From assembly GCA_965216785.1 (NCBI GenBank), contig OZ244197.1:506041-570040 (forward strand): a stretch of DNA of 64,000 bases, in the 5' to 3' direction. Shown here piece after piece: positions 24,549 through 54,099 of the stretch (positions are counted from its first letter, which is position 1; each line of letters opens with the position of its first letter). This DNA comes from Thermodesulfobacteriota bacterium (lineage in GTDB: Bacteria; Desulfobacterota_D; UBA1144; Nemesobacterales; UBA2774). The notes beneath the pieces are model-generated. The model had not been told where the DNA came from, made no database searches, and worked only from the letters and a program-made list of their open reading frames with translations. The position numbers and the translations under genes were made by a program.

Positions 24549-26123
24549 ATGAAACAACACGAAGAAATAACCCGTTCCGCAGGTCTTGTCGGCTCGCTCA
24601 CTCTGCTTAGCAGAATAGCCGGATACGCCCGGGATATGGTCATAGCCTATTTCTTCGGCGCGTCCGCCTCAACAGACGCCTTCTGGGTAGCGTTTAGAAT
24701 CCCGAACCTCCTGAGGAGGCTCTTTGCCGAAGGCTCGCTCACTATCTCTTTCATCCCGGTCTTTACCGATTACATTGAGAAAGGAGATAAAAAAGAGGCT
24801 AAGAAGGTTGAGGACGCGGTATTTACAATACTCCTTTGCCTCCTAATAATCATATCCGCCCTGGGAGTAATTCTTTCTCCTTACATAATAAAAATATTCG
24901 CAGCGGGCTTTGACGCACAAACATTTAACCTGGCGGTAACTCTTAACCGCTACATGTTCCCCTATATACTGTTCATTTCGCTTACCGCTCTGTCCATGGG
25001 CGTATTGAATTCGCTAAGGCATTTCTTCGCCCCGGCTATCTCTCCAGCCGTTTCGAATATCTGCATTATAGCAGCGATATTTTTAATACACAGAAGCCTA
25101 AACGTCCCCATTTATTCAGCCGCGGCGGGAGTAATGCTGGGCGGTGTTCTTCAACTCGTGATTCAGATCCCGTTTTTAAAATCCCGCGGTTTTCTATTCG
25201 GATTTAGTAAGAGCTGGGGACACCCGGCGGTCAAGCGTATTGCATTATTAATAGTCCCGCAGCTCTTCGGTGTTGCCGTTTACCAGCTAAATATAATAGT
25301 CAACACTCAATACGCCTCGTTTATGCCTCAGGGGAGCATCTCCTACCTCTACTTTGCCGAGCGGCTCATAGAGTTTCCGCTCGGGATAATCGCCGTATCG
25401 ATCGCGACTGTGCTCCTTCCCAGCCTCTCATCGCACGTTTCAAAGGGGGAATTCGGGAAATTCAGAGAAACCTACTCCTACACACTCAGGCTCATGCTAT
25501 TCATTCTGATTCCGGCGCTGGTCGGCCTTATAGTGCTCAGGGTTCCCATCTGCAACCTCCTGTACCAAAGGGGCGAGTTTAGCTACGCAGCAGCCCTCTT
25601 CACCTCTCAAGCGCTATTCGGCTACGCGATCGGGCTATGGGCTGTAGGTGGCATAAGGATTACGGCTCCTGCTTTCTACGCCATGAAGGACACTAAGACA
25701 CCTGTCATAATTGCTTTTGTTGCGTTCATTGCAAATGCGGTACTTGGTTATGTACTCGGATTTACTTTCGGCCTTCTTCACACCGGGCTTGCTATTTCAA
25801 GCTCTGTCTCTTCTATAATTAATTTCCTGCTGCTTTTTTATCTTGTAGAAAAAAGGGTTGGTGACATAAAGGTGAGATCCATACTTGCTCTGTCTTTAAA
25901 GCTGATAGCGATATCCCTCGTTATGGGTTTTGCGGCGTGGAAATTCTCAGGGCTTGCAGATTGGAGCGAAGCCCAATTTTCATGGCAGAAAATCGGGGTA
26001 TTAGCAGGCTCAATTGTCATTTCCGCGGTGGTTTACTTCGCACTCGCCAAACTGCTGAGAGTAAAAGAGTCGGATTTCCTGTTCGCTATGATCCGCGGCA
26101 AATTCTCAAGTGCGAAGGGATGA
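24549..26123 (+). CDS. murJ: Lipid II flippase MurJ (MviN)
   Basis: 14-TM MOP-superfamily protein with LLSRIAGYARDMVIAYFFGAS...FWVAFRIPNLLRRLFAEG N-terminus. Confidence 0.93.
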   Translation: MKQHEEITRSAGLVGSLTLLSRIAGYARDMVIAYFFGASASTDAFWVAFRIPNLLRRLFAEGSLTISFIPVFTDYIEKGDKKEAKKVEDAVFTILLCLLIIISALGVILSPYIIKIFAAGFDAQTFNLAVTLNRYMFPYILFISLTALSMGVLNSLRHFFAPAISPAVSNICIIAAIFLIHRSLNVPIYSAAAGVMLGGVLQLVIQIPFLKSRGFLFGFSKSWGHPAVKRIALLIVPQLFGVAVYQLNIIVNTQYASFMPQGSISYLYFAERLIEFPLGIIAVSIATVLLPSLSSHVSKGEFGKFRETYSYTLRLMLFILIPALVGLIVLRVPICNLLYQRGEFSYAAALFTSQALFGYAIGLWAVGGIRITAPAFYAMKDTKTPVIIAFVAFIANAVLGYVLGFTFGLLHTGLAISSSVSSIINFLLLFYLVEKRVGDIKVRSILALSLKLIAISLVMGFAAWKFSGLADWSEAQFSWQKIGVLAGSIVISAVVYFALAKLLRVKESDFLFAMIRGKFSSAKG

Positions 26124-26214
26124 TTTTGATTCGCACAAATTGCGAGGCATATAAAAATGGGCTGACAGTGATATTAAATCACCCCCAGCCCCGCTATTTC
26201 ATCTTTAAAGTTAA

Positions 26215-28140
26215 CTACCGATTGGCGCAGAAGCCGAAATTCTGCGTGCCTCCCGGCTGAACAGTATTGTTCCAGGACACACCTTCGGCTGTAACGATAC
26301 CGCCGCTCTGTGTATATGTCGCGTTCCACATATTCCTTACAGTCCCGTCAATCGAAAACGATACTATCCAGTCTTGAGGTGAAGAGCCCGAATTAGACAC
26401 CGTTACCTGAGCGCAGTAACCCGATCCCCAGTCGTCATTGATGGCAACGGTTGCGGTAACATCCCCTCCGCCGGGAGGCGCATTAAACTCGTCGTCATCA
26501 TTTGCGCTGCCGCACCCCGGGTCCGCGGGATAGTCCGTAAGACCGTCACTGTCGTTGTCTATACCGTCAGAGCATGCGAACACAGGCGGGGGCGGTGTCG
26601 GCGCAGGAGTCGGAACAGGAGTAGGCTCCGGAGGTGCAGCGCGGTCCGCACAGAAGCCGAAATCCACCGAATTCCCCGGCGCTACCGTATTATTCCAGGA
26701 CACTCCCTCTACCGTAACTTCATCCCCAGACTGTGAATACTCGGCATTCCACATATCCTTGACCGTTCCCTCAATACTAAAGCTAACCACCCAATCCTCT
26801 GTGCTGCTGCCGTTATTCGTAACCACTACCTGGGCGCAGTAACCCGATCCCCAGTCGTCGTTGATGGAGACAGAGGCTGTGACATCCCCTCCGCCGGGAG
26901 GCGCGTTAAACTCGTCATTGTCTGTTGCGGAGCTGCATCCCGGGTCGTCCGGATAATCTGTCAGACCGTCGCTGTCATTGTCGATGCCGTCAGAGCATGC
27001 GGCTACAGGAGGAGGCGGTGTAGGGGTGGGAGGAGGCACATTGCCGTCCATCAGCTGGCTCAGCAGCGCCACTTTATCGTCCCAAACACTCTGCCAATCG
27101 TCCTGTAGTATCCCGCCCGTGTCCCCGCTGTTCGGGTTCCACGACCAGTAAAAGAAGTTAGTCATCCCCTTCCCATCCATCCAGTTTATCAGGGCGTCCT
27201 GCCAAGTCTTGTCTCTTGGGTCACCGCCGTTTCCGTACCTGCCGCCGAACTCACCGATGATGACCGCATAGCCCCTATCCACAAGATAGCCGAAATGCGT
27301 TTCCCAGATTGCGGGCATATTTCCCGGAAATCCGGAGTCGTTGAAGTAGGGCTGAACAAAAACGTCCGGTCCGTAAACGTGCGGGCTTAGTACGAGCTTA
27401 TCCTCGGGAATATTGAGCGGAAAGCAAGAGAATGGTTCCAGATTTCCGCCCCACCAGTGCTGAATGGAGCCCGAGCACGTAGGGTTTTCCTGAACCCCCT
27501 GGACGAAGATCAAGATATTAGAGTTAACCGCGAGAACCTCAGAAGCCGCAAGCTCGGCTGCCCGTTTCCAGTCGGTTGCCGCATCTCCGGTGCCCCAGGT
27601 CGCGGGGCCGTGAGGCTCGTTTTTTATATCTATGGCAAAGAAACTCTCTATATTGCTATATCTGTCCGCCAAGAATGTCAGGTCGTCTATCCAGTCCTGC
27701 TCGGAATAGCTCCCCGTGTACCATAACTCTTCGATAGTCTGACAGTCCGAAGTATGGTGATCGAGGAGTATGTAAAACCCTTGCCTGTCGAGCTCCTCTA
27801 CCACCTTGTCCATGATATCCAGAGACCCGAGTCCCTGAAGATCGGAGTTTGCCGAATAGTTTATGCTCGACGGTGTTACGTTGTCCAGAGTTCTGGGACA
27901 GAAAGGAAGTCTTATCGCCGTAAAGCCGAGCCCCTTAATCTGCTGAATCATATCCTTCCAGTTCCGGGCCCACAAACCGTGTACTACGTTATTATTGGTC
28001 TCAAAACCAAACCAGCTCACGCCGTACAGGTTTACTTCCTGAGCCTGCTCGTTAAATACCTTGCCGTCCTCGACGTAATAAGCCCGGACTGGCAACGTTA
28101 TACAAACCAATACAAAAAACGCTGTAAGTACTAAGCGCAT
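26215..28140 (-). CDS. Secreted glycoside hydrolase family 5 endoglucanase with two C-terminal CBM2 carbohydrate-binding modules
   Basis: Signal peptide MRLVLTAFFVLVCITLPVRA. GH5 catalytic motifs NEP (acid/base) and IGEFG (nucleophile). Two Pro/Thr-rich linkers each followed by a CBM2-like module (W..GY.AQV.V.N.G....W.V.F...G......WNA.Y.QSG....GVSWN....PG....FGFC). Confidence 0.88.
   Translation of the reverse strand: MRLVLTAFFVLVCITLPVRAYYVEDGKVFNEQAQEVNLYGVSWFGFETNNNVVHGLWARNWKDMIQQIKGLGFTAIRLPFCPRTLDNVTPSSINYSANSDLQGLGSLDIMDKVVEELDRQGFYILLDHHTSDCQTIEELWYTGSYSEQDWIDDLTFLADRYSNIESFFAIDIKNEPHGPATWGTGDAATDWKRAAELAASEVLAVNSNILIFVQGVQENPTCSGSIQHWWGGNLEPFSCFPLNIPEDKLVLSPHVYGPDVFVQPYFNDSGFPGNMPAIWETHFGYLVDRGYAVIIGEFGGRYGNGGDPRDKTWQDALINWMDGKGMTNFFYWSWNPNSGDTGGILQDDWQSVWDDKVALLSQLMDGNVPPPTPTPPPPVAACSDGIDNDSDGLTDYPDDPGCSSATDNDEFNAPPGGGDVTASVSINDDWGSGYCAQVVVTNNGSSTEDWVVSFSIEGTVKDMWNAEYSQSGDEVTVEGVSWNNTVAPGNSVDFGFCADRAAPPEPTPVPTPAPTPPPPVFACSDGIDNDSDGLTDYPADPGCGSANDDDEFNAPPGGGDVTATVAINDDWGSGYCAQVTVSNSGSSPQDWIVSFSIDGTVRNMWNATYTQSGGIVTAEGVSWNNTVQPGGTQNFGFCANR
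26218..27000. repeat. About 420-bp tandem direct repeat (about 80% nt identity) encoding the duplicated linker + Ca-loop + CBM2 module of the GH5 gene
   Basis: Long shared nucleotide strings are visible directly, e.g. gcgcagtaacccgatccccagtcgtc...cccctccgccgggaggcgc and gaccgtc(a/g)ctgtc(g/a)ttgtc(t/g)ataccgtcagagcatgcg. Confidence 0.8.
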
Positions 28141-37210: not shown

Positions 37211-37909
37211 CTAATACTCTTCCACTACTCTTAAATCTCTCCGAAACTGCTCTGGGACGAGGTCGGGATCGTTCACGAAATGCTCTATACCCCGGTCATC
37301 CGTCCAAATGTATATGGTGCGCCTTTCAGACTCAGGGGCGTATGAGTAACTATCGGGCGTACTTTGATATTCCCCAGGATATTCATAAACATCTTCAGGG
37401 TAATAATCTGGCTTATCAATACCGTAATCCGGGCCGTATACGTAATTATTTACTTCCAGGTTGCTCCGTCTCTCAGGCACCGTGCCTAGAGTCGATCCGT
37501 AGCCGTCGTAGGGAATATCTTCATAGCCGTAATAGTCATCCGGGTAATAAACGTATCCGCCGTAAGCTCTGTAATAGGGTTTGTATCCGTAGTAGTTATA
37601 GTGCTTTTTATGGTTCTTATAGTAGTGTTTTTTACCGTGGCCATGGTTCCCGTAGTATTTTTCGTTGTAAGCCTTTGTACCGGGGTGAGGCTTATAGTAC
37701 TTATTATGAAACTCCTTATGCTTGTTAAAGAGGTTTGTGTTGCCAAAGGAGTTATAGCTTTTTTTGTTGGCGGGGTACTTAAAAGCTGTTTTCCCGCTCT
37801 TTGAGCTTAATTTATTGCTCTTATGGCTTGCGCTTTGACCGAACGCCAGAGGAGAAAGGAAGGCAAGCAAAAACAAAACCATTAGTCCCGTAATCGTTCT
37901 TTTTATCAT
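37211..37909 (-). CDS. Secreted Tyr/His/Lys-rich low-complexity protein with C-terminal DUF4124-like motif
   Basis: Signal peptide (MIKRTITGLMVLFLLAFLSPLAFG). About 35 Tyr in 232 aa, in YY/YGY/HY clusters. The C-terminus TIYIWTDDRGIEHFVNDPDL resembles the DUF4124 core (IYkWvDenGvvHfSD). Confidence 0.7.
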   Translation of the reverse strand: MIKRTITGLMVLFLLAFLSPLAFGQSASHKSNKLSSKSGKTAFKYPANKKSYNSFGNTNLFNKHKEFHNKYYKPHPGTKAYNEKYYGNHGHGKKHYYKNHKKHYNYYGYKPYYRAYGGYVYYPDDYYGYEDIPYDGYGSTLGTVPERRSNLEVNNYVYGPDYGIDKPDYYPEDVYEYPGEYQSTPDSYSYAPESERRTIYIWTDDRGIEHFVNDPDLVPEQFRRDLRVVEEY

Positions 37910-38627: not shown

Positions 38628-39401
38628 GTGAACCCGGGCTTAAAGCTAATAGGAGCTATTATGCTACTACTAATATCGACTTCTTATTCAAGCACCCTCT
38701 CAACAGCCGAAGAACATCAGGATTCTCTCTTTCAGACCGCTATCCTGCAGTCTCTTGTAGATGGAGTGTACGACGGAGACTTAACTGTAGGGGAGTTAAA
38801 AGAGCACGGCGACTTCGGAGTGGGAACATATAACCGGCTTAACGGAGAGATGGTGGCTCTTGACGGCGTCTTTTACCAGGTTAAGTCAGACGGCAAAATA
38901 GAAATCCCGGATGACTCCACAAAAACCCCCTTCGCGATAGTAACATTTTTTGATACCAATGAAACTATGAAGCCCCATAGCAAGATGAGCTGCGAAGAAC
39001 TTAAAAGCTATATTGAAAACGCCCTTCCCGCTGAAAACATATTCTACGCAATAAAAGTTCACGGGAGTTTTGAATATATGAAGACCAGGAGCGTACCCGA
39101 GCAAACAGCGCCGTATCCGCCCCTTAGCGAAGTGGTTAAAATAGAGTCAAAATTCGAATTCAAGAACATTACCGGAACCATCGTAGGACTATGGTTGCCC
39201 GAGTATATGGACAATATAAATCAGCCAGGATTCCATTTTCATTTCATATCGGACGACAAAAAATCAGGGGGACATGTGCTGGACTGTAAAACGGAGGATG
39301 TAGTAATAGAGATAGATTACATGAGAGAGCTCGATCTCGATCTTCCAGACACGGAAGGCTTTAATAACGCTGAGCTTACGGAGCCAAAAAAGGAAAATTA
39401 G
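38628..39401 (+). CDS. Alpha-acetolactate decarboxylase (AlsD/BudA family), with N-terminal signal peptide
   Basis: LFQTAILQSLVDGVYDGDLTVGELKEHGDFGVGTYNRLNGEMVALDGVFYQ matches the ALDC N-terminal core. Hydrophobic leader LIGAIMLLLISTSYSS. Confidence 0.8.
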   Translation: MNPGLKLIGAIMLLLISTSYSSTLSTAEEHQDSLFQTAILQSLVDGVYDGDLTVGELKEHGDFGVGTYNRLNGEMVALDGVFYQVKSDGKIEIPDDSTKTPFAIVTFFDTNETMKPHSKMSCEELKSYIENALPAENIFYAIKVHGSFEYMKTRSVPEQTAPYPPLSEVVKIESKFEFKNITGTIVGLWLPEYMDNINQPGFHFHFISDDKKSGGHVLDCKTEDVVIEIDYMRELDLDLPDTEGFNNAELTEPKKEN

Positions 39402-42556: not shown

Positions 42557-42666
42557 AGCAACTTCCACACATGCTTTACATCTAATATCAAAGTATCGGT
42601 CGTTCACAAAAAGTTTTGATATCTTTTGACATTTATATTATAAATGTGATGGAGGGAAAATATCCA

Positions 42667-44652
42667 ATGGCTGAAACAACTCGACAAGCTAAAAAACATA
42701 AAAGCTGGTACAAAGTGCTCGAGCACGGCGAGCTTCCGGAAGGGAGGGTAACTACCAGGACTTGCCGGAACCTAACCTTATGCCTCAGTAGACACGGGGG
42801 CAAATACGGAGCGCTCGACAACAAATGCCCTCATCAGGGGGGGCCGCTCGGGGAAGGATCTATCGAGAACGGCTGGCTCAGGTGTCCCTGGCACGGATGG
42901 GACTTTGATCCTATTTCCGGGAAATCGCCCGGAGGGTTTGAGGACGGCGTACCTGTATTTGAGATAGAAGAGCGGGACGACGGAATATATGTCGCGCTTG
43001 AAGATTTGGGAGAACATCAGAGAACAGTTACCGATCTTATGGCCGAGACAATGGTAAATTGGGGAATCAAGCATGTATTCGGCATGGTAGGACATTCGAA
43101 CCTCGGGCTTGCGGACGCGCTGAGGGTTCAGGAGGAGAAAGGGAATATCTCCTACATAGGAATACGTCACGAAGGGGCTGCTGCTTTTGCGTGCTCGGCT
43201 TACGGCAAGCTCACAGGGAGACCCGCGGCGTGTCTTGGAATCGCAGGACCCGGATCAACTAACCTACTAACCGGACTTTGGGACGCGAATGTGGACCGAA
43301 GCCCAGTGCTTGCTCTGAGCGGCCAGGTAGATACGCAGGTGCTGGGCCCGGGGGCTTTTCAGGAAGTGGACCTGCAGGCAGCTTTCGGCAAGGTGGCTCA
43401 ATGGACCCAGACCGTGCTTCAAACGAGTAAGCACGCAGAGCTTGTAAACCTGGCACTCAAGAGCGCCATACTGAACAGAGGGGTATCTCATCTGATTTTC
43501 CCGGACGAGGTACAGACGCTACCTGCAAAAGACGAGGCAAAAGCCGGCAGCCCTGTAGGCAGAGTGACACCGCTTACAATCACCCCGCCAAGGCAGACGT
43601 TAAACGAAGCGATAAAACTTATAAAGAAAGCCGAGCGGCCATCGATTATCGTAGGGCACGGCGCAAGGTTTAATATGGATTCTATAACAGAGCTTGCACA
43701 GAGCCTTAGGTGTCCGGTGTTTACGACATTTAAAGGCAAGGGGCTTATCCCTGACAACCATCCACTCGGTTGCGGTGTACTCGGCAGGAGCGGTACTCCA
43801 ATAGCGAGCTGGTTTATGAACGAGTCGGACCTGCTCATAGTGTTTGGGGCGAGCTTCAGTAACCACACAGGAATATCATCGAAGAAGACGATCATACACG
43901 TGGACTTTGACAACATGGCTTTAGCTAAATTCCACCCGGTCACAGTGCCGGTTTGGGGCGAGATCGGTATTACCGCAGAGCTTATAAAAAAAGCGGTGAA
44001 AGGAAAAGCTAAATCCAAGGACAGAAGAAAAGAGATAGCAAAACGGTGGAAGATATGGCGGGAGGAGAAAGAAAGCCGGAGAAAAGACGAAAGCTCTGTC
44101 GGGCTTAGCTCGTCCTATATATTCGAGGAGCTTTCTAATCACTCTCCAGAGGATGCCATAATAGCAGTCGATGTAGGTAATAACACATATTCGTTCGGAA
44201 GATACTTTGAATGTAAAAAACAGTCGATACTGATGTCGGGCTATCTGGGCTCTATCGGGTTTTCTCTTCCCGGTGCGATAGGGGCATGGACAGCGACCCA
44301 GGAAGATGACCCGAGGTTCAGAGGACGAAAGGTAATATCCGTCTCCGGGGACGGAGGGCTCGGGCAGTATCTGGCAGAAGTAACTACAGCAGTTAAATAC
44401 GGGATGAACATTACCCATGTGCTCCTTCACAATAAAGAGCTTGGGAAGATTTCAAAAGAACAGCGCGCCGGGAACTGGGAGGTATGGCAGACTTCTCTGC
44501 ATAACCCGAACTTTGCCGACTACGTGAACTCCTGCGGAGGGCTTGGAGTAAGGGTTACCAAAAAATCGGAGCTCAGAAGGGCTCTCAAAAAATGCTTCAA
44601 GCATAATGGGTTTTCAATGGTCGAGATTATGTCCGACCCGGATTTAATTTAG
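42667..44652 (+). CDS. Fusion protein: N-terminal Rieske [2Fe-2S] domain + thiamine-diphosphate enzyme of the pyruvate oxidase/acetolactate synthase superfamily
   Basis: Rieske ligands CPHQGGP...CPWHGWDF. Then TPP Pyr domain (WGIKHVFGMVGHSNLGLADAL...GIAGPGSTN), a middle domain, and a PP domain with GSIGFSLPGAIGA...SGDGGLGQ...HNKELGKI. A Lys/Arg-rich insertion sits between the middle and PP domains. RBS GGAGGG precedes the ATG at 42667; the track ORF starts at 42616. Confidence 0.85.
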   Translation: MAETTRQAKKHKSWYKVLEHGELPEGRVTTRTCRNLTLCLSRHGGKYGALDNKCPHQGGPLGEGSIENGWLRCPWHGWDFDPISGKSPGGFEDGVPVFEIEERDDGIYVALEDLGEHQRTVTDLMAETMVNWGIKHVFGMVGHSNLGLADALRVQEEKGNISYIGIRHEGAAAFACSAYGKLTGRPAACLGIAGPGSTNLLTGLWDANVDRSPVLALSGQVDTQVLGPGAFQEVDLQAAFGKVAQWTQTVLQTSKHAELVNLALKSAILNRGVSHLIFPDEVQTLPAKDEAKAGSPVGRVTPLTITPPRQTLNEAIKLIKKAERPSIIVGHGARFNMDSITELAQSLRCPVFTTFKGKGLIPDNHPLGCGVLGRSGTPIASWFMNESDLLIVFGASFSNHTGISSKKTIIHVDFDNMALAKFHPVTVPVWGEIGITAELIKKAVKGKAKSKDRRKEIAKRWKIWREEKESRRKDESSVGLSSSYIFEELSNHSPEDAIIAVDVGNNTYSFGRYFECKKQSILMSGYLGSIGFSLPGAIGAWTATQEDDPRFRGRKVISVSGDGGLGQYLAEVTTAVKYGMNITHVLLHNKELGKISKEQRAGNWEVWQTSLHNPNFADYVNSCGGLGVRVTKKSELRRALKKCFKHNGFSMVEIMSDPDLI

Positions 44653-44696
44653 ATGTATAAATTTAAAATTGAATCATCAATAATCCAGGAGGAAAT

Positions 44697-45488
44697 ATGG
44701 CTGACAAAACCGAGTATCCGGATATTAATTACAACGACGGTATTAAAACAATTGAGACTGTGCACGGATACGCAAAACTCTTAGGCGCAATCAGGGCCTC
44801 GATGACTCCCCCACAAAAAGACTATTGGCATATAAGCCTCAGGACCGGGCCGCTAGGGTTCCGTACTACGCCCGTGCCGATTGGAGACGGTCATACATTT
44901 GAATTACTTCTAGACCTGGTTTCACACTCGGCGGCGATCACAACGAGTAAAGGCTACACGTGGAACTTGCCAATCGAGGGACAAACGCTTACAGCCTTTT
45001 CGGAAAGCGTACTTAGAGAGCTCGGGAAGCTCGGAATCAGCCCTGAAATCGACACTGAAAAATTCAAAGACGAGACGGAAAGGATATACAACTTTCAGCA
45101 CGCCTCGGACATATTTAGATACTATTCCATTTTCGACATGGTCTTAAAGGAATTTAAGGGAACGCTTGCTCAGGAGACAAGCCCCGTTCAGCTGTGGCCG
45201 CACCACATGGACATAGCGTTTACCTGCTACACGGAGTCAGGGTTATTGCTAACTTGCGGTTTTCTCCCGGGGGACGAAAGTATAGAAGAGCCATATTTCT
45301 ACATAACCGCATACCCTGAGATAGATGATACGTCTTCTGTCACCCTTGGGGGTAAGGCGTATTGGCATACCGTAGACTGGCAGGGGATTATCTATAAATA
45401 CTCAGACCTTCTGGAATCAGAGTCTCCAAGAGAAGAGCTGCTAAGACATCTGGGATCGAGCTTTGATCAAATTATGGAAAAATCCTGA
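44697..45488 (+). CDS. Hypothetical protein (263 aa), 44 nt downstream of the Rieske-TPP gene
   Basis: Good RBS (CCAGGAGGAAAT ATG). No recognised domain. Probably co-transcribed. Confidence 0.5.
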   Translation: MADKTEYPDINYNDGIKTIETVHGYAKLLGAIRASMTPPQKDYWHISLRTGPLGFRTTPVPIGDGHTFELLLDLVSHSAAITTSKGYTWNLPIEGQTLTAFSESVLRELGKLGISPEIDTEKFKDETERIYNFQHASDIFRYYSIFDMVLKEFKGTLAQETSPVQLWPHHMDIAFTCYTESGLLLTCGFLPGDESIEEPYFYITAYPEIDDTSSVTLGGKAYWHTVDWQGIIYKYSDLLESESPREELLRHLGSSFDQIMEKS

Positions 45489-45490
45489 TT

Positions 45491-46126
45491 TTATTCTGAG
45501 CATAAACCCGAGCAGGATTTATAGCCGGCTTTACACCCGGATACGCATTTTGATCTTTTACCAGACTTAGCCCCACCTCCGATATATACACTGCAGCCCG
45601 ACTTACAGTGCCGGAGCTTGTAATCGCAGTCTTCACTACAGCTTAGATCCGGTTTTTCTGGGTAATCGAGCCTTTCGGGAAGAGAGGGATCGGCGCATCT
45701 TTTTTTGCAGTAATCAGAGCTCTCGGCGCACTTGCTTCTGCATACGCTTTTCTTCCCGCTCTTGGCCCCGCCGCCTGTGTATTTGGTGCAAACTTCGTTG
45801 CAGTCAACAAGCTTTAAATCACATGCGTCCCTGCACGCACGGTCGTGATACGCCTCGGGTTTAAGCGTTGGCCTGGGCGTAGGGTTCAGGCATCTAACAT
45901 TGCAGCCCTCAAGCTCTTTTCCGCAGCCCCTATTACACTCCCGTCTTTTCTCAGCCTTAGCCCCACCCCCAATGAGCTGTGAGCATGAGAACTCGCAGTT
46001 ATCCCTACTCTCCTCACACATTTGCGGGCAGGTGAGATCTATATATTCTTCACCCCAAGCGGGATTGAAGAAAGATCCCAACATGGCAATTGTCGCCAAT
46101 ACCGATATTAGAGCTATTTTATTCAT
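45491..46126 (-). CDS. Secreted Cys-rich repeat protein (three ~65-aa units, 8 Cys each, central GGGAK motif)
   Basis: Signal peptide MNKIALISVLATIAMLGSFFNPAWG. Each unit is C-X3-C-X6-C-X3-C-X5-6-GGGAK-X4-5-C-X3-C-X6-C-X3-C. The track ORF starts 57 nt further upstream, at 46183. Confidence 0.7.
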   Translation of the reverse strand: MNKIALISVLATIAMLGSFFNPAWGEEYIDLTCPQMCEESRDNCEFSCSQLIGGGAKAEKRRECNRGCGKELEGCNVRCLNPTPRPTLKPEAYHDRACRDACDLKLVDCNEVCTKYTGGGAKSGKKSVCRSKCAESSDYCKKRCADPSLPERLDYPEKPDLSCSEDCDYKLRHCKSGCSVYIGGGAKSGKRSKCVSGCKAGYKSCSGLCSE

Positions 46127-46237
46127 ACATTTTGGCTTTGTATTGCTTACTAAATGAGTACTTAAAGTATAGCAACTATGCATCTAACATAAAGCCCTGC
46201 TTGTTACGAACAGATACCCTCGTTATAATTTGCAAGC

Positions 46238-48492: not shown

Positions 48493-50367
48493 CTATGACT
48501 CTCCCGGACGCTCCCAAGCATGATCGTTATCTTCCTCTATATCTTCCTGATCGGATTTCAGAAGATCTATCAGGTCCTGGTTTTTCTCCTTGGTCTTTTC
48601 TATAAACGCTTTTTCATCCTCGGACTCCAGCACGTCGTATAACTCTACAAGATGCTTTTCATCATGGTGCTTGAAATTGAGCGCCGCGCGGTGCGCTTGG
48701 TAACCATGAAACCCGAGCATCCTGAGCGCGCTTTCACCAAGCTCAATCGCTGACGCAAAAGTCTCCCTCTCTATAACCTTAACCCCCGCATCCATTAACT
48801 CATAGGTATGTCTTCTATCAAAAGAACGGGCTAAAATCTGTAAATTGGGGAAATGCTTCCTGACAGTGCGCGCTATCTCTATTGCCTTGTCTTTGTCATC
48901 CACGGCCAACACAAAGAGCTTTGCGTCCTGAGCGCCCGCGGATGTAAGTAGATCAAGCCTCGAAGCGTCGCCGTAAAACACTTTATATCCAAATCTTCTT
49001 ACCATATCTATCTGGCTCGGCTTATAATCCAGCACCGTTGTACCGATATTATTCGCATGCAGCAGTCTACCGACGATCTGGCCGAATCTTCCAAAGCCCG
49101 CTATGATGACGGGGTTTTTCTCATCTATCTCGTCAGGATCCCTTTTCTCGCTAAGGCTCTTAAAGCGGGGCTGTATAAGAAGCTCGTTAATTATCATCAT
49201 GATCGGCGTCATCATCATCGAAAGCGCGATCACTAATATGAGGGTGCCGGATATATACGCCGGAATCACATTATTTTGTGTAGCAAAAGAAAAGAGCACG
49301 AATCCGAACTCGCCCCCCTGCGCGAGTGAGAAGGAGAACAAAAAGTTTTGGCTCATATTCATTTTGAAGACTACGCCGAGTATGAACAAGATAATGAGCT
49401 TTATAGAAACGAGCACCGCGACGAGACCTAAGATTAGATAGGGTTCTTGCATAAATAGATTAAAATCAATGCTCGCCCCCACAGAGATGAAGAATAGACC
49501 GAGCAGGAGTCCTTTAAACGGCTCGATATCGGATTCGAGCTCGTGTCGGTATTCGCTATCGGCCAGAACCACGCCTGCTAAAAAGGTTCCCAAGGCTGGA
49601 GACAGCCCTACGAGCTGCATAGAAAGAGCGATACCTATAACGAGAAATAGAGCGAACGCCGTGAATATTTCTCTTAACCTGGTCTCGGCGATAAAGCGGA
49701 AAGCGTAACGGGCTAAGAACTTGCCGGCTATAATTATAGTTCCGATGAGCGCTGTCACTATCAGCGCTTGCTGCCACCCCGGCAGTGCTTCAACGGGTGA
49801 TTCGCTATGACCCGCTCCGGATTCCGCACCGATAAACGGTACGCTTGACACTGCAAGAAGCGGGATTAATGCCAGCATGGGTATTACTGCTATATCCTGA
49901 AACAGGAGCACTGAGAAACTCGAGCGGCCTCCTTCTGAATTCATTAAGCCTTTTTCGCTTAGGGTTTGAAGCACAATGGCGGTTGAGGACAGGGCCAAAA
50001 TAAGGCCTACTGCAAGAGATATCCTCCAACCGAAATCAAGCGCGAAAGCAAGTGCCCCTATAACAACAGCGCTCAGAAGCACCTGAAGGCCGCCAAGTCC
50101 CACTATGGGCCCTTTTAGCTTCCATAGTCTTGAAGGCTGCAGCTCTAGCCCGATCAGAAACAGCATCAGCACTACGCCGAACTCGGCAAAGTGCATTACC
50201 TCCCCCGTCTCAGTACCAACAAACTTGAGCGCAAAAGGTCCTATAATCACGCCCGCTAGCAAGTAACCAAGCACCGATCCAAGCCCTAAACGCTTGGCGA
50301 TAGGGACAGAAATTACCGCTGCAAGTAGGTATATGAATGCCTGAAATAAGAGATTATCACTTCCCAT
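48493..50367 (-). CDS. kefC: Glutathione-regulated K+-efflux / CPA2 family cation:proton antiporter with C-terminal RCK (TrkA-N) domain
   Basis: About 13 TM helices, then a Rossmann motif IIAGFGRFGQIVGRLL. Acidic C-terminal tail. Confidence 0.85.
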   Translation of the reverse strand: MGSDNLLFQAFIYLLAAVISVPIAKRLGLGSVLGYLLAGVIIGPFALKFVGTETGEVMHFAEFGVVLMLFLIGLELQPSRLWKLKGPIVGLGGLQVLLSAVVIGALAFALDFGWRISLAVGLILALSSTAIVLQTLSEKGLMNSEGGRSSFSVLLFQDIAVIPMLALIPLLAVSSVPFIGAESGAGHSESPVEALPGWQQALIVTALIGTIIIAGKFLARYAFRFIAETRLREIFTAFALFLVIGIALSMQLVGLSPALGTFLAGVVLADSEYRHELESDIEPFKGLLLGLFFISVGASIDFNLFMQEPYLILGLVAVLVSIKLIILFILGVVFKMNMSQNFLFSFSLAQGGEFGFVLFSFATQNNVIPAYISGTLILVIALSMMMTPIMMIINELLIQPRFKSLSEKRDPDEIDEKNPVIIAGFGRFGQIVGRLLHANNIGTTVLDYKPSQIDMVRRFGYKVFYGDASRLDLLTSAGAQDAKLFVLAVDDKDKAIEIARTVRKHFPNLQILARSFDRRHTYELMDAGVKVIERETFASAIELGESALRMLGFHGYQAHRAALNFKHHDEKHLVELYDVLESEDEKAFIEKTKEKNQDLIDLLKSDQEDIEEDNDHAWERPGES

Positions 50368-50402
50368 AATTTATATGCCCTAAAAATTATATGCTCCCAA
50401 TT

Positions 50403-51032
50403 TTACATGCTCTTGGATTTATACTTTTCCAGAAAGTAACCATTAATATATTCAAACTCCTCAAGCGCCGCTAAGTTTATTTCCTCATCTCTTAGGGTTT
50501 TAATTATTTCTCCGTATAGCTCTTTAGACACTTCTATGTCTTGATACTTTTTTGAACCCGAAGCGTCGTGCACAACAAAAGGCGGCAGGTAATGCATTCC
50601 GCAGAGCACAGCCGATTGCTCAAAGGGTTTTAGAAAATCCCTAACGTTATAATAATGAATTCCGTCCCTGCTGTACGAATTGAAACTACCACCCGCGGTT
50701 ATGGCATTCATCATCATTTTTCCTTTTAAAGCCGTGCCCTGGTGTCCGTAAGCAAAACCGAACTCGAGCACCAGATCTTCCCATTCTTTTATGATGGCTG
50801 GAGAGCTGTACCAATAAAATGGATGTTGAAACACTATCACGTCATGCTCCAATAGGAGCTCCTGCTCCTTCTCAACATCTATAAGAAAATCCGGGTACAG
50901 ATCATACAAATCCCGGAAGGTAACACCTTCCAGCTCATTTACGGCTTTGATGAGCTGGATATTAATCCTGGACTTTTGCAAAGCCGGATGGGCAAAAATA
51001 ATCATCACTCTGTTTCGTATATTCTTAGACAT
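50403..51032 (-). CDS. kefG: KefG/KefF-type flavodoxin-like NAD(P)H oxidoreductase (Kef ancillary subunit)
   Basis: VMIIFAHPALQKSRIN...VIVFQHPFYWYSSPAIIKEW is typical of KefG/MdaB-like proteins. Immediately upstream of kefC, as in E. coli kefGB. Confidence 0.8.
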   Translation of the reverse strand: MSKNIRNRVMIIFAHPALQKSRINIQLIKAVNELEGVTFRDLYDLYPDFLIDVEKEQELLLEHDVIVFQHPFYWYSSPAIIKEWEDLVLEFGFAYGHQGTALKGKMMMNAITAGGSFNSYSRDGIHYYNVRDFLKPFEQSAVLCGMHYLPPFVVHDASGSKKYQDIEVSKELYGEIIKTLRDEEINLAALEEFEYINGYFLEKYKSKSM

Positions 51033-51254
51033 GTGTTTTTAAGATCAAGGCTTGCCGCTCCTTTTAATTTCACGCGCGTGGCAAATAACTGATACCGTTT
51101 TAGCTTTAATGTTAGATATTACACAAAATTCCCGATTATAGAACTACCCGATTCCCTATTAGGAATTCTCAATACCGTAATATCCTATGAGTTCAGAAAT
51201 CTGAAGAAAGAGCTACATATGATTAGAGGGAAATAGAATTCAAATGGTTCAAAA

Positions 51255-51845
51255 CTAAAAGGTTAAGCTTTGCAAGGATTGATCCAGATCATCTGCGAAT
51301 ACTTCACAAATATCGTCCCATTGATCTGAAATATTCGAATCGTTGAAGCTCGAAGTAAAAAAGGAAAGGTAGGACATCAGGATTTGAGCCATTCCCGAGC
51401 TTATTTCTTTAAACACAAGGTTTCTTTCGGCCTTCTCGCCTGTCCATCCTTTATATAGATTCCGTGCCGTAGCGTCTGAGATGCGATTTTGTCGGACATG
51501 GAGAAGTCTTAGATGAGAGTATTTATCCGAAGCGATATTTGCCAGATTTGTCAGAAACTCAGTTTCAGGTTCGACTTTCATCACTTTCTCAGTAAATTCT
51601 GCACACTGGTTCAACATGATAAGCATGACAGATATAGCAGTGTAGGGATCTTTCCCTATCTTTTTATTCAGAGAGAGAAGATGCTGATCAAATTCTGAGA
51701 ATAAACGTACTAAATTATTCTCCAGTACTTCGTCGCTAGCAATTGAGCTGACTTTACCCAGTTCAGAGTTGGTCTGGTGTGTTGTCTCTTCGCTATCATT
51801 GCTTAGAACTATAATATTTCTTTTCATCGATTTATCACTATGCAC
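51255..51845 (-). CDS. Hypothetical protein (196 aa), 8 nt downstream of the MshEN-REC gene
   Basis: No recognised domain. Operon partner of the regulator gene. Confidence 0.45.
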   Translation of the reverse strand: MHSDKSMKRNIIVLSNDSEETTHQTNSELGKVSSIASDEVLENNLVRLFSEFDQHLLSLNKKIGKDPYTAISVMLIMLNQCAEFTEKVMKVEPETEFLTNLANIASDKYSHLRLLHVRQNRISDATARNLYKGWTGEKAERNLVFKEISSGMAQILMSYLSFFTSSFNDSNISDQWDDICEVFADDLDQSLQSLTF

Positions 51846-51853
51846 ATCTAACC

Positions 51854-53308
51854 TTATCCTGAGATTAACCCTGCTGCATTTGAGCTTGTGTATCTTTGAG
51901 CGGCCTCTACAAGCTCACTTGCCGCAAACGGTTTAGAGATATTTCCGTTTGCTCCCGCCATTTTTGAGCGTACTTTATCAACGAGTCCATCTTTAGAAGA
52001 CAGCATGATAATGGGTACTTGTTTCATGAGCCCGTGGCTTTTAATAATCTTGCAAACCTGGTAACCATCCATGTGCGGCAGGTTTATTTCTATAAAAATT
52101 AAGCCCGGCTTAACATCAGTTAAGCACGAGAGTGCCTCCATACCATCAGACACAGCGCTCACAGAATACCCTTGACGGTTTAAGGCAATACTTATTAACT
52201 TTTGAATCGTAGGGCTGTTATCTATAACTAAGACATTTTTATTGATCCCACTTGAACTAATATCATTTGGAGTGATTTCACTTGACGGATCATTCATATC
52301 TACAGAGTCTGAGGCAGAGGCCTGGAGTTGCTTTTCAATTTCCGGCTCGGCAGATGCCGCAAAAGGCTCATTAATTGAGTTTAAGCCCTGAGATGAAGAT
52401 GTAAGCTGGACAGGTTCCTCATTAGACTGATCCGTTCCCTCCAAAGTGTCCCCGCCAATTTGGTTCTCGTCCTCAGTCATTTCTGCGGAGTCTTTATTAT
52501 CGGGAGAATTAATAAATAGATTTTGACTAAAAACGTCTACGCCATCACCAGGGGCTGAGTCTTCTACCCGAGTCTCCGATTCTTCAAAAAAGCCGGAATT
52601 GTCAGCGTCGTTGTGCAATTCGTCAGTTTCAGATTCATCTATAAGATCTTCATTCGTATCTCTAACGGGGGGAGCGTCTATTTCAGATTCAATCTTCTCT
52701 GCATGAAAAATTTCTTCATTGAATGTTGATTGAGTATTTTCTTCTTCCAATGATCCGTTAATATCAACTTCTAAAGTATCATCGTTTTTATACCCTTCTA
52801 TCTCTTTTACTAACTCTTCTATATCTATATCTTCATTTTCAGCGGGTTTTGCCGATAATTTAGAATAATCCGTGAAATTTTTATTGTATCCGTAATACTG
52901 CGTTAACATATCAATTATGGAGCGCTCTGAAACGACTACGGGGATAATATTTTTCCCCGTTAAAAAGTTTAGTTTATCTAACAGTATTAAATTTGAGGGG
53001 TCTGACATAGCGACTGTTAATGCAGAACCTGTGATGCTCAGTGGTATAAGACGGTTCTCTATTGCTATCTCACTTGGAATAAGCTCTAAAACTTCTTGAT
53101 CTACAGAGTGGTCCTCTATGCTAATTACAGGCACACCGTAAGATTTACCGAGAAAATCCATTAGCTCAGGTTCAGTTATGTAGCCCAATTCAATTAAAGC
53201 CTCACTAAGCTCCATATCGGAATTGTACTTTTTCTCAATCGCCTCTTTTATCTGCTCCAGGCTTAAAATATCTTCTTTAACCAGAAGCTTAGCTATCTGC
53301 ATTTTCAT
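51854..53308 (-). CDS. Response-regulator receiver protein with N-terminal MshEN (T2SS-E N-terminal, c-di-GMP-binding type) domain and ~240-aa acidic disordered linker
   Basis: N-terminus LLVKEDILSLEQIKEAI...LGYITEPELMDFLGKSYGVPVI (GSPII_E_N/MshEN). C-terminus NVLVIDNSPTIQKLISIALNRQGYSV...IMLSSKDG...K (CheY-like REC). The middle (about 52190-52890) is D/E/S-rich. The track ORF starts at 53344. Confidence 0.8.
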   Translation of the reverse strand: MKMQIAKLLVKEDILSLEQIKEAIEKKYNSDMELSEALIELGYITEPELMDFLGKSYGVPVISIEDHSVDQEVLELIPSEIAIENRLIPLSITGSALTVAMSDPSNLILLDKLNFLTGKNIIPVVVSERSIIDMLTQYYGYNKNFTDYSKLSAKPAENEDIDIEELVKEIEGYKNDDTLEVDINGSLEEENTQSTFNEEIFHAEKIESEIDAPPVRDTNEDLIDESETDELHNDADNSGFFEESETRVEDSAPGDGVDVFSQNLFINSPDNKDSAEMTEDENQIGGDTLEGTDQSNEEPVQLTSSSQGLNSINEPFAASAEPEIEKQLQASASDSVDMNDPSSEITPNDISSSGINKNVLVIDNSPTIQKLISIALNRQGYSVSAVSDGMEALSCLTDVKPGLIFIEINLPHMDGYQVCKIIKSHGLMKQVPIIMLSSKDGLVDKVRSKMAGANGNISKPFAASELVEAAQRYTSSNAAGLISG

Positions 53309-53716
53309 ATAGGTTAAGAATTTTGCAAGTAGCGTGCCATACACAAATTAGTCTGTAAAATATCCATAAGCCCCCTATATCACTATATAATCTTGTACAG
53401 ACTAGTGAGTACCTAATGCGCAATTGTGACGAAAAACGTCAATATGCGACTTTAAATTCACATTTTGTAAGGGAAACACTATTTTCACTATTATGGTTTG
53501 ACTAAAATATCGATCTTATTTAAAGGTTTTTCTGCCACGATAAAAGAAGTTTAAACTAGCGTAAAGTTAACCATTAAGACGGAAGAATTAATAATTCGGA
53601 TAAAATCACGTATCAAGTGTCTAATTTTTAAAACTTCGTGCTTAAAAGTGAGGCACATTTTTTTATTAACATTTCATAAGATGCCTATTTCATTGATTGA
53701 AATGCGTTTTGATAAG

Positions 53717-53732
53717 TGGTATGGTGTTTGCA
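53717..53732 (+). promoter_or_regulatory. Putative sigma-54 (-24/-12) promoter of glnB-glnA
   Basis: TGGTATGgtgtTTGCA matches TGGCACG-N4-TTGCW at 11 of 12 defined positions. It lies about 30 nt upstream of the glnB ATG. Confidence 0.6.
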
Positions 53733-53736
53733 TTAA

Positions 53737-54099
<363 letters not shown>

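Follow-up and report, generated by a model that had tools for sequence, protein, structure and literature searches.

On its forward strand, the analyzed window (a contiguous stretch of 64 kb) contains a gene for a Rieske [2Fe-2S] domain that is fused in-frame to a complete ThDP enzyme of the POX/ALS superfamily. We consider it somewhat better than an even bet (probability of roughly 0.55) that this protein is a soluble, cytoplasmic, decarboxylating 2-oxoacid dehydrogenase of the POX/PoxB/PQO lineage, whose electrons leave through the Rieske domain. The redox chemistry, the direction of electron flow, the occupancy by FAD, the substrate and the acceptor are all features that we infer from the comparisons below. 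In ThDP enzymes of the POX lineage (EC 1.2.3.3 and 1.2.5.1), the electrons are known to go to O2 in the case of POX and to membrane quinone in that of PoxB and PQO, and one-electron transfer to iron-sulfur proteins has been regarded as a property of the unrelated PFOR family. The built-in Rieske domain is probably a new way of drawing electrons from POX-type ThDP enzymes. The features of the locus are as follows, with positions counted from the first nucleotide of the window.

38628-39401: alpha-acetolactate decarboxylase (ALDC) gene (Pfam search)
42651..42656, + strand: Shine-Dalgarno sequence GGAGGG of the fusion gene, read from the sequence, ~10 nt before ATG 42667
42667..44652, + strand: Rieske-ThDP fusion gene, 661 aa (ORF, independent gene call, four Pfam domains)
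42703..42924, + strand: Rieske [2Fe-2S] domain (PF00355, 63.2 bits against a cutoff of 20.3)
43024..43380, + strand: ThDP Pyr domain (TPP_enzyme_N) with the cofactor-activating Glu169 (PF02776, E 1.9e-32)
43603..43977, + strand: middle nucleotide-binding domain (TPP_enzyme_M), probable FAD or ADP site (PF00205, E 1.6e-32)
43978..44169, + strand: interdomain linker with a Lys/Arg-rich helix (alignment with the PoxB linker; predicted helical)
44170..44628, + strand: ThDP PP domain (TPP_enzyme_C) with the GDG...N Mg/diphosphate motif, K594 and E598 (PF02775, E 2.5e-30; residue mapping)
44687..44692, + strand: Shine-Dalgarno sequence AGGAGG of the DUF5996 gene, read from the sequence, 5 nt upstream of ATG 44697
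44697..45488, + strand: DUF5996 partner gene, 263 aa (PF19459, E 1.4e-41, 143 bits; cutoff 25)

A single unbroken ORF at positions 42616-44652 encodes the Rieske domain followed by TPP_enzyme_N, TPP_enzyme_M and TPP_enzyme_C, and each of the four Pfam models scored well over its cutoff, which agrees with the domain order read from the letters in a preliminary description of this DNA. The gene most likely starts at ATG 42667 rather than at TTG 42616, because the former is preceded by the Shine-Dalgarno sequence and agrees with the independent 661-aa gene call. A short, conserved linker joins the Rieske domain to the Pyr domain. Identical fusion genes were found in two independent assemblies, with the 661-aa call made on identical contigs, and the protein is 85-91% identical to its Dadabacteria homologues. 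Moreover, a continuous four-domain protein was present in all 120 best database clusters and at all 80 genome loci, which represent many phyla. These observations virtually rule out that two genes were joined through a sequencing, assembly or frameshift error.

The Rieske module contains the motifs CPHQGGP and CPWHGWDF and a complete CxH...CxxH ligand set consisting of C54, H56, C73 and H76 (numbered from the Met at 42667). An alignment of 44 homologues revealed no loss of these ligands, all of which are invariant. The nearest solved relatives are soluble Rieske ferredoxins of oxygenase systems, above all CarAc (1VCK) and T4moC (1VM9) but also the naphthalene dioxygenase ferredoxin, with E-values from 5e-9 to 2e-5. 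These proteins share the ligand set and, like the module of the fusion, are devoid of the additional cysteine pair that forms the disulfide in bc1-type Rieske proteins. We predict that the module carries a low-potential cluster of the soluble electron-shuttle class. Ferredoxins of the CarAc/T4moC type are separate proteins that shuttle between an oxygenase and an NAD(P)H reductase, whereas the module is here covalently joined to a ThDP enzyme. In the position where a Rieske non-haem iron oxygenase would carry its mononuclear-iron (2-His-1-carboxylate) domain, the Pfam search detected no such domain and the ThDP enzyme follows instead.

The ThDP part has the Pyr-middle-PP order, the activating Glu and the GDG-x(24-27)-N motif that define the POX/ALS superfamily. 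E169, D562 and N589 of the fusion align with PoxB E50, D433 and N460 and are invariant among the 44 homologues, and E598 is the equivalent of PoxB E469. The glycine-rich nucleotide loops of the middle domain are likewise invariant in these homologues, and the middle domain taken alone is about as near to ADP-binding as to FAD-binding solved relatives. Lys594, which is invariant across the Rieske clade, occupies the position of PoxB F465. F465 is the Phe that mediates electron transfer from ThDP to FAD in PoxB, where it lies between the two cofactors as F479 does in LpPOX. Its replacement by Lys and the similarity of the middle domain to ADP binders weigh against our main reading. The Lys/Arg-rich segment between the middle and PP domains had been regarded as an extra insertion, but it aligns with the linker of E. 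coli PoxB with only two one-residue gaps. The fusion protein stops six residues past the last aligned position of the PP domain, and the alignment with PoxB ends at about residue 526-532 of 572. Judged from its sequence, the fusion is thus without the C-terminal membrane-binding/activation peptide of the PoxB/PQO type.

None of the NCBIfam models reached its cutoff with the fusion protein. The top match was the pyruvate oxidase model PRK08611 (385 bits; cutoff 742), and the PoxB-type model PRK09124 (296 against 792 bits) and TIGR02720 (274 against 638) remained well under their thresholds, as did the acetolactate synthase models TIGR00118 (282 against 538), TIGR02418 (198 against 551) and PRK08322 (296 against 509). 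As all pyruvate oxidase and PoxB scores are far below cutoff, substrate and product of the fusion may differ from those of the modeled enzymes. The Pfam search detected no domains of the POR/PFOR family in the protein.

Among solved proteins, sequence and fold searches both placed the ThDP body nearest to E. coli PoxB (pyruvate:ubiquinone oxidoreductase; PDB 3EY9/3EYA) and C. glutamicum PQO (9EV3-9EV6), with E 3e-67 in sequence and with E 5e-40 and a TM-score of ~0.8 on target in Foldseek; L. plantarum POX (1POX), of the same superfamily and fold, was also found. PoxB and PQO share with the fusion the Pyr/middle/PP order, the activating Glu and the GDG...N motif, and they catalyze the oxidative decarboxylation of a 2-oxoacid, which by analogy is likely also the chemistry of the fusion. 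However, the fusion is only ~25% identical to them, has gained the N-terminal Rieske domain, has no C-terminal membrane peptide and carries Lys in place of F465. The electron outlet would differ as well, being membrane quinone in PoxB and PQO and presumably the fused Fe-S carrier in the Rieske fusion. As the membrane anchor is missing, the fused carrier may replace the membrane/quinone outlet. In POX, O2 accepts the electrons of FAD and the products are acetyl phosphate and H2O2, whereas the fusion bears a one-electron carrier. In concept the fusion resembles PFOR/OFOR, in which electrons also leave a ThDP enzyme singly via built-in Fe-S clusters toward ferredoxin-like acceptors, but the architecture of PFOR is unrelated and PFOR uses [4Fe-4S] clusters and CoA and no flavin.

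According to the mechanism that we favor, ThDP, activated by Glu169 and held by the GDG...N589 motif, would decarboxylate a 2-oxoacid, for which pyruvate is the default guess, to a hydroxyalkyl-ThDP carbanion/enamine. Two electrons would then exit via the nucleotide cofactor of the middle domain, which is probably FAD and would convert two-electron into one-electron transfer. The active site requires a dimer. They would pass singly to the attached low-potential Rieske domain and onward to an external partner, with the products of two genes located next door in many genomes, DUF5996 and a protein containing a Rieske and a glutamate-synthase FMN/3Fe-4S domain (hereafter protein X), as likely candidates.

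Independent support for an electron relay came from the nearest relatives that lack a Rieske domain. These are rubredoxin-ThDP fusions (P0247, P0255, P0258, P0265 and P0272; 48, 41, 41, 38 and 35% identity) from Dehalococcoidia, Methanomicrobiales and ANME-2. Their rubredoxin modules retain an intact CxxC...CxxC motif, and they resemble the Rieske fusion in the position of the carrier, the catalytic residues and the missing C-terminal anchor. They differ in the identity of the carrier and in their anaerobic hosts, and are themselves uncharacterized. A further protein, P0242, combines a 4Fe-4S domain, two CDGSH domains and a Rieske domain, four metal-cluster domains in all, with the ThDP enzyme. 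The interchangeability of one-electron carriers (Rieske, rubredoxin, multi-cluster) argues for an electron relay and lends strong weight to the dedicated one-electron relay proposed in the preliminary description; the redox-regulated lyase offered there as an alternative appears less likely.

We examined the neighborhood of the fusion gene in 14-kb loci (n = 80). In the window, the co-oriented 263-aa ORF noted before lies 44 nt downstream of the fusion on the same strand. It had been assigned to no recognizable family, but belongs to the Pfam family DUF5996, for which we know of no function. The spacing between the two genes is only 3 nt in other Dadabacteria. DUF5996 was found to be a conserved, co-oriented neighbor at 30 of the 80 loci, mostly abutting the fusion gene, and it occurs on either side of it, which argues against a merely inherited gene order. 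Its AF2 model has a pLDDT of 90.7, a search of solved structures found no structural relative, and the conserved core WPH(H/Y/F)xD...GDx5PY(F/W)Y persists down to ~25% identity. Protein X adjoins the fusion at 31 of the 80 loci and retains an intact C-x5-C-x4-CP 3Fe-4S motif. One or both of these genes are co-oriented with the fusion at 41 loci, all three genes occur together at 20, and neither partner is close by at the remaining 39. Recent duplication as the source of the Rieske modules of X and the fusion is ruled out, as these are just 28% identical.

These patterns raise the possibility of a three-component system, in which the Rieske-ThDP protein acts as the "reductase", with a 2-oxoacid replacing NAD(P)H, and feeds DUF5996 and/or X. 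DUF5996 would then act as a terminal catalyst that has a new fold and an invariant His/Asp site, and X would reduce an imine or 2-oxoacid, for instance 2-oxoglutarate plus NH3 to glutamate. The placement of DUF5996 on both sides of the fusion, the adjacency of X with its intact cluster motif, the loci with all three genes, the deep conservation of the DUF5996 core and one locus (L090) where DUF5996 and X occur together without the fusion are consistent with such a system. On the other hand, about half of the loci contain neither partner, X was not found in the 64-kb window, no protein fusing DUF5996 or X to a ThDP enzyme was seen, and both flavoenzymes could instead donate electrons to a common acceptor. 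We thus regard the three-component arrangement as a tentative and rather unlikely proposal. The same caution applies to a broader version of it, in which the fusion is the electron input of an unrecognized, horizontally mobile redox module with a 2-oxoacid as reductant and DUF5996 and/or X as recipients, and in which the POX scaffold with its swappable carriers makes up a third class of 2-oxoacid:iron-protein oxidoreductases beside PFOR and the PoxB/POX type; this, too, we hold to be improbable.

Quite unlikely, in our view, is a non-redox function as an ALS-, glyoxylate-carboligase- or Xsc-like carboligase or lyase, with the Rieske domain as a sensor of redox state, O2 or NO or as a structural element, and with any flavin vestigial as in AHAS. 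FAD is bound without redox use by many members of the superfamily; this is established for AHAS, for glyoxylate carboligase and for cyclohexane-1,2-dione hydrolase, and the three enzymes are among the matches. The ALS models gave strong scores too, the electron-transfer Phe of PoxB is not kept, and at Poribacteria loci genes for a PALP enzyme and a class-III aminotransferase directly precede the fusion, which would fit an Xsc-like catabolic role. However, the carrier exchange and multi-cluster extension described above are the signature of an electron wire and would not be expected of a sensor, PoxB, PQO and POX, which top the matches in sequence and fold, belong to the redox branch, and no ALS small-subunit gene adjoins the fusion. 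Electron flow in the opposite direction, from the Rieske domain to the flavin/ThDP site, for example to carboxylate an acyl donor reductively or to keep a catalytically required flavin reduced, is very unlikely: fused ferredoxin-type domains can run both ways, PFOR is reversible and the Rieske domain is of the low-potential class, but Rieske ferredoxins of this class, typically at ~-150 mV, are poor donors for the very low-potential acyl/hydroxyalkyl-ThDP couple, and every characterized near relative runs oxidatively.

The preliminary description had also pointed to an ALDC gene upstream of the fusion as a hint of an acetolactate/acetoin link. The gene is indeed present, but it is conserved as a neighbor only within the Dadabacteria, as are a cyclase, a class-V aminotransferase and an NTPase. 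Outside this group all four were absent from the 80 loci, bar one cyclase match, and a functional link of the fusion to ALDC or acetoin is unsupported.

Proteins with the Rieske-ThDP architecture fall into at least 120 clusters and were found in at least 80 species genomes of ~14 phyla; conservation over these phyla is very high (76% mean column identity). The hosts are mostly represented by marine, sponge or sediment MAGs and also include lucinid symbionts. Given its high conservation and its presence in numerous lineages, the family probably represents an unrecognized step in the central or stress metabolism of marine, sponge- or lucinid-symbiont and sediment lineages. The architecture appears to be undescribed: sequence and Foldseek searches of solved structures found no chain combining Rieske and TPP domains, literature searches on the Rieske-ThDP fusion retrieved no paper, and no curated family was found. 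The earlier suggestion that this is not a described enzyme stands in this respect, although the protein is by no means rare, being common in the databases, where all homologues bear generic names. If our main reading is correct, a POX-type enzyme connected to a Rieske, rubredoxin or multi-cluster carrier of its own would constitute a new mode of coupling in a textbook enzyme class. It would also offer an initial clue to the function of two large uncharacterized families, DUF5996 and the "glutamate synthase-related" proteins with a fused Rieske domain. The fusion should be tractable for heterologous expression because it is predicted to be a single soluble polypeptide.

The whole window contained no Rfam or tRNA features. 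In the single rubredoxin-ThDP context examined, neither DUF5996 nor X was found near the gene and a peroxiredoxin gene lies downstream. A peroxiredoxin and a DsbH-type thioredoxin-fold protein adjoin the rubredoxin-ThDP gene and also accompany DUF5996 and X in L090. Across the 80 fusion loci, peroxiredoxin and DsbH-type genes were absent (0/80 each), and an antioxidant/thiol theme is a weak lead for these loci. A few of them contain glutathione peroxidase and EgtB/EgtD genes, with EgtB-like genes at six and EgtD at two of the 80.

The fusion of a Rieske module with a three-domain ThDP enzyme, which the preliminary description had read in frame, was borne out. A single unbroken ORF in the window (42616-44652, + strand) carries four Pfam domains in that order, all far above the gathering score (residues of the TTG-started ORF):

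30-103, + strand, Rieske
137-255, + strand, TPP_enzyme_N
330-454, + strand, TPP_enzyme_M
519-671, + strand, TPP_enzyme_C

ATG 42667 is almost certainly the real start, because a GGAGGG Shine-Dalgarno sequence lies ~10 nt upstream and the same 661-aa product was called independently in two other assemblies with the identical locus. Counted from this Met, as are all residues below, the Rieske ligands are C54, H56, C73, and H76. The same four domains were found in all 120 best database clusters (69-91% identity to the fusion), and a genome scan (one genome per species) confirmed at least 592 candidate stretches as relatives and yielded at least 80 full-length fusion loci, 80 of which were listed. 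These findings rule out an artefact, to which we give practically no chance. The supposed Lys/Arg-rich insertion proved to be the ordinary linker between middle and PP domains, which aligns with residues ~320-365 of E. coli PoxB with two single-residue gaps.

Judged by sequence, the ThDP body belongs to the POX/PoxB lineage and has all catalytic residues, namely the activating Glu (E169, PoxB E50), the Mg ligands D562 and N589, and E598, the conserved equivalent of PoxB E469. No curated NCBIfam model reached its cutoff with the fusion protein; the top model was pyruvate oxidase PRK08611 (385 bits versus a cutoff of 742), followed by pyruvate dehydrogenase/PoxB-type and ALS models. The best solved sequence relatives were E. 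coli PoxB (E = 3e-67), C. glutamicum PQO (9EV3-6), L. plantarum POX, and plant AHAS, and an AlphaFold model of the fusion (pLDDT 81, pTM 0.77) superposed best on the same proteins. The structure comparison found no solved chain spanning Rieske and TPP domains. The middle domain has glycine-rich nucleotide loops that do not vary within the fusion family; compared by itself, this domain is about as similar to FAD binders (AHAS, POX, PQO, CDH, GCL) as to ADP binders (oxalyl-CoA decarboxylase, HACL). Whereas PoxB possesses a C-terminal membrane-binding peptide, the fusion lacks such an anchor because its polypeptide stops directly after the PP domain. At the position of PoxB Phe465, a residue on the route of electrons from ThDP to FAD in PoxB and LpPOX, the fusion family has Lys without exception.

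The covalently attached Rieske module, whose ligands are invariant, is of the ferredoxin type. Its closest solved relatives are CarAc (E = 5e-9), T4moC, and the naphthalene dioxygenase ferredoxin, all free-standing low-potential Rieske ferredoxins of oxygenase systems, and direct reading of the motifs (CPHQGGPL...CPWHGWDF) revealed that it lacks the two additional cysteines that Rieske proteins of the bc1/b6f type have. For both reasons, the module looks like an electron shuttle.

An exhaustive homologue search of 1.84 billion cluster representatives recovered a compact Rieske-fused clade, with full-length representatives at 56-58% identity. The next relatives outside this clade share the ThDP body but bear another N-terminal one-electron carrier. 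In the following cluster representatives this is a rubredoxin with intact CxxC...CxxC motifs:

P0247, 48% identity
P0255, 41% identity
P0258, 41% identity, Dehalococcoidia
P0265, 38% identity, Methanomicrobiales
P0272, 35% identity, ANME-2

In P0242 (873 aa; locus L086, 8001-10622), a 4Fe-4S mono-cluster domain, two CDGSH 2Fe-2S domains, and a Rieske domain precede the ThDP enzyme. Unfused ThDP relatives also exist, e.g., P0259 (40% identity). Hosts of the Rieske version are marine lineages with an aerobic or microaerobic lifestyle, and those of the rubredoxin version are anaerobes. An electron wire would be expected to look like this, with a single catalytic body that takes exchangeable or serially linked one-electron carriers; a purely structural or sensor role of the Rieske domain is hard to reconcile with such a pattern. 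We consider this carrier swapping the strongest evidence for the dedicated one-electron relay that had been proposed; the electron transfer itself is what we infer from it.

Other rubredoxin-fused relatives are P0392 (listed with P0258; locus L083, 8001-9764) and P0320. The 4Fe-4S domain of P0242 is divergent, its cluster domains amount to a four-cluster chain, and a glyoxalase-fold gene follows. Downstream of the rubredoxin-ThDP gene in Dehalococcoidia come genes for a peroxiredoxin and for a DsbH-type thioredoxin-fold protein. P0270, P0287, P0296, P0321, P0349, P0358, and P0379 are ~1,080-1,130 aa long and 27-31% identical to the fusion; P0270, the only one scanned, consists of two complete POX/ALS-type ThDP enzymes arranged in tandem within a single polypeptide.

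One or both of two conserved partners adjoin the fusion in about half of the listed loci. The 263-aa gene 44 nt downstream (44697-45488, + strand), which has its own AGGAGG ribosome-binding site, had been assigned to no recognisable family, but its product matches the uncharacterised Pfam family DUF5996 (E = 1.4e-41). A profile search placed DUF5996 within 6 kb of the fusion in 30 of the 80 listed loci, always on the same strand and usually abutting; whether it lies upstream or downstream depends on the lineage. The second partner, X (~545 aa; e.g., L052, 4361-5980, and L019, 3300-5111), combines a Rieske domain with the FMN domain of the glutamate synthase large subunit, has an intact [3Fe-4S] motif (C-x5-C-x4-CP), and adjoins the fusion in 31 loci. 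Both partners were present in 20 of the listed loci, X only in 11, DUF5996 only in 10, and neither in 39; X is absent from the 64-kb window. The X family is abundant, uncharacterised, and very highly conserved, and bears only generic names ("glutamate synthase-related", "Rieske 2Fe-2S domain-containing"). The Rieske modules of X and of the fusion share only 28% identity. In locus L090, where the fusion is missing, DUF5996 and X are again found together, and a peroxiredoxin and DsbH-type pair precedes DUF5996-DUF1684-X.

We slightly favor (probability roughly 0.55) a ThDP-dependent decarboxylation coupled to an electron relay from cofactor to Rieske centre and on to a soluble partner. A 2-oxoacid, pyruvate by default, would be decarboxylated on ThDP, and both electrons of hydroxyalkyl-ThDP would reach the Rieske centre by way of a cofactor in the middle domain, probably FAD. 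From there they would leave singly to the partner, a role that DUF5996 and/or X may fill in many genomes. That one of these is the obligatory terminal enzyme of a three-component system is a less probable elaboration of this scheme, which it does not contradict. Somewhat less probable still is a carboligase or lyase of non-redox type whose Rieske domain acts as a sensor, against which the exchange and concatenation of carriers on the same ThDP body argue. Reverse electron flow seems improbable. The decarboxylase with a Rieske relay would work like a hybrid: it resembles PoxB/PQO in scaffold and presumed chemistry and PFOR in its presumed one-electron Fe-S outlet, but falls outside each of these groups.

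No publication on DUF5996 or on ThDP enzymes fused to Rieske or rubredoxin domains turned up in a full-text literature search, and no curated family covering the fusion was found. The architecture, said earlier not to be a described enzyme, is apparently unstudied and has no solved structure that we could find, although it is common in sequence databases; it is readily testable. Hosts of the listed loci are Deinococcota, Poribacteria, Acidobacteriota, Gemmatimonadota, Myxococcota, Nitrospirota, Nitrospinota, Planctomycetota, Rhodothermales, Spirochaetales, Gaiellaceae, Calditrichota, Hyphomicrobiales, and Gammaproteobacteria, including lucinid symbionts (Thiodiazotropha). Their proteins are 63-71% identical to the window fusion, which in turn is 85-91% identical to proteins labelled Candidatus Dadabacteria at NCBI. 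This identity and the shared gene order described below assign the window to that phylum. Mean column identity in an alignment of 44 fusion sequences was 76%; so much conservation between phyla points to strong constraint and probably also to horizontal spread.

The gene order def-ALDC-cyclase-DUF6573-class V aminotransferase-NTPase-fusion-DUF5996 is kept in other Dadabacteria, whereas the alpha-acetolactate decarboxylase (ALDC; 38628-39401, + strand) was near the fusion in none of the 80 listed loci from other phyla. Its proximity is therefore lineage synteny and not a functional signal, and the suggested acetolactate link was not upheld. The N-terminus of the ALDC homologue is hydrophobic and signal-like (MNPGLKLIGAIMLLLISTSYSS), an unusual feature in an enzyme of the cytoplasmic acetoin pathway. 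Other neighbors in the listed loci were sporadic, and we build nothing on them: EgtB-like (6/80), EgtD (2/80), Na+/H+ exchanger (4/80), carbonic anhydrase (4/80), and a class-III aminotransferase with a PALP enzyme in the four Poribacteria loci. In a few lineages, ergothioneine-type EgtB-like (DinB_2 + FGE-sulfatase) and EgtD-like (Methyltransf_33) genes end the X/fusion/DUF5996 module (L052, 10602-12955; L091, 11348-12846; L068), and in Thiodiazotropha a Na+/H+ exchanger gene lies inside it.

Four further genes lie near the fusion in the window:

37211-37909, - strand, low-complexity protein of 232 aa with very high contents of Tyr, Lys, His, Asn, and Pro and an N-terminus resembling a signal peptide
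45491-46183, - strand, 230-aa cysteine-rich protein with an N-terminal hydrophobic segment, three repeats with GGGAK(S/A)(G/E)K(R/K), and no Pfam match
48493-50367, - strand, KefB-type K+/H+ antiporter
50403-51032, - strand, 209-aa ORF

The cysteine-rich gene converges on the DUF5996 stop codon with a 2-nt gap, and an unannotated gene of similar size occupies the equivalent position in Dadabacteria locus L089 and is also present in L088. No rRNA, tRNA, or Rfam features were found anywhere in the window. Its GC background is ~47%, with a spike of 53.7% at 26001-28000 and a dip to 37-42% at 50001-54000. The arrangement of KefB and a following gene is kept downstream of the locus across Dadabacteria; the position of the 209-aa ORF is occupied by a Flavodoxin_2 (KefF-like) gene in the syntenic loci L088 and L089. 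Cation/proton antiporter genes also lie beside the fusion in 4 of the 80 listed loci from other phyla.
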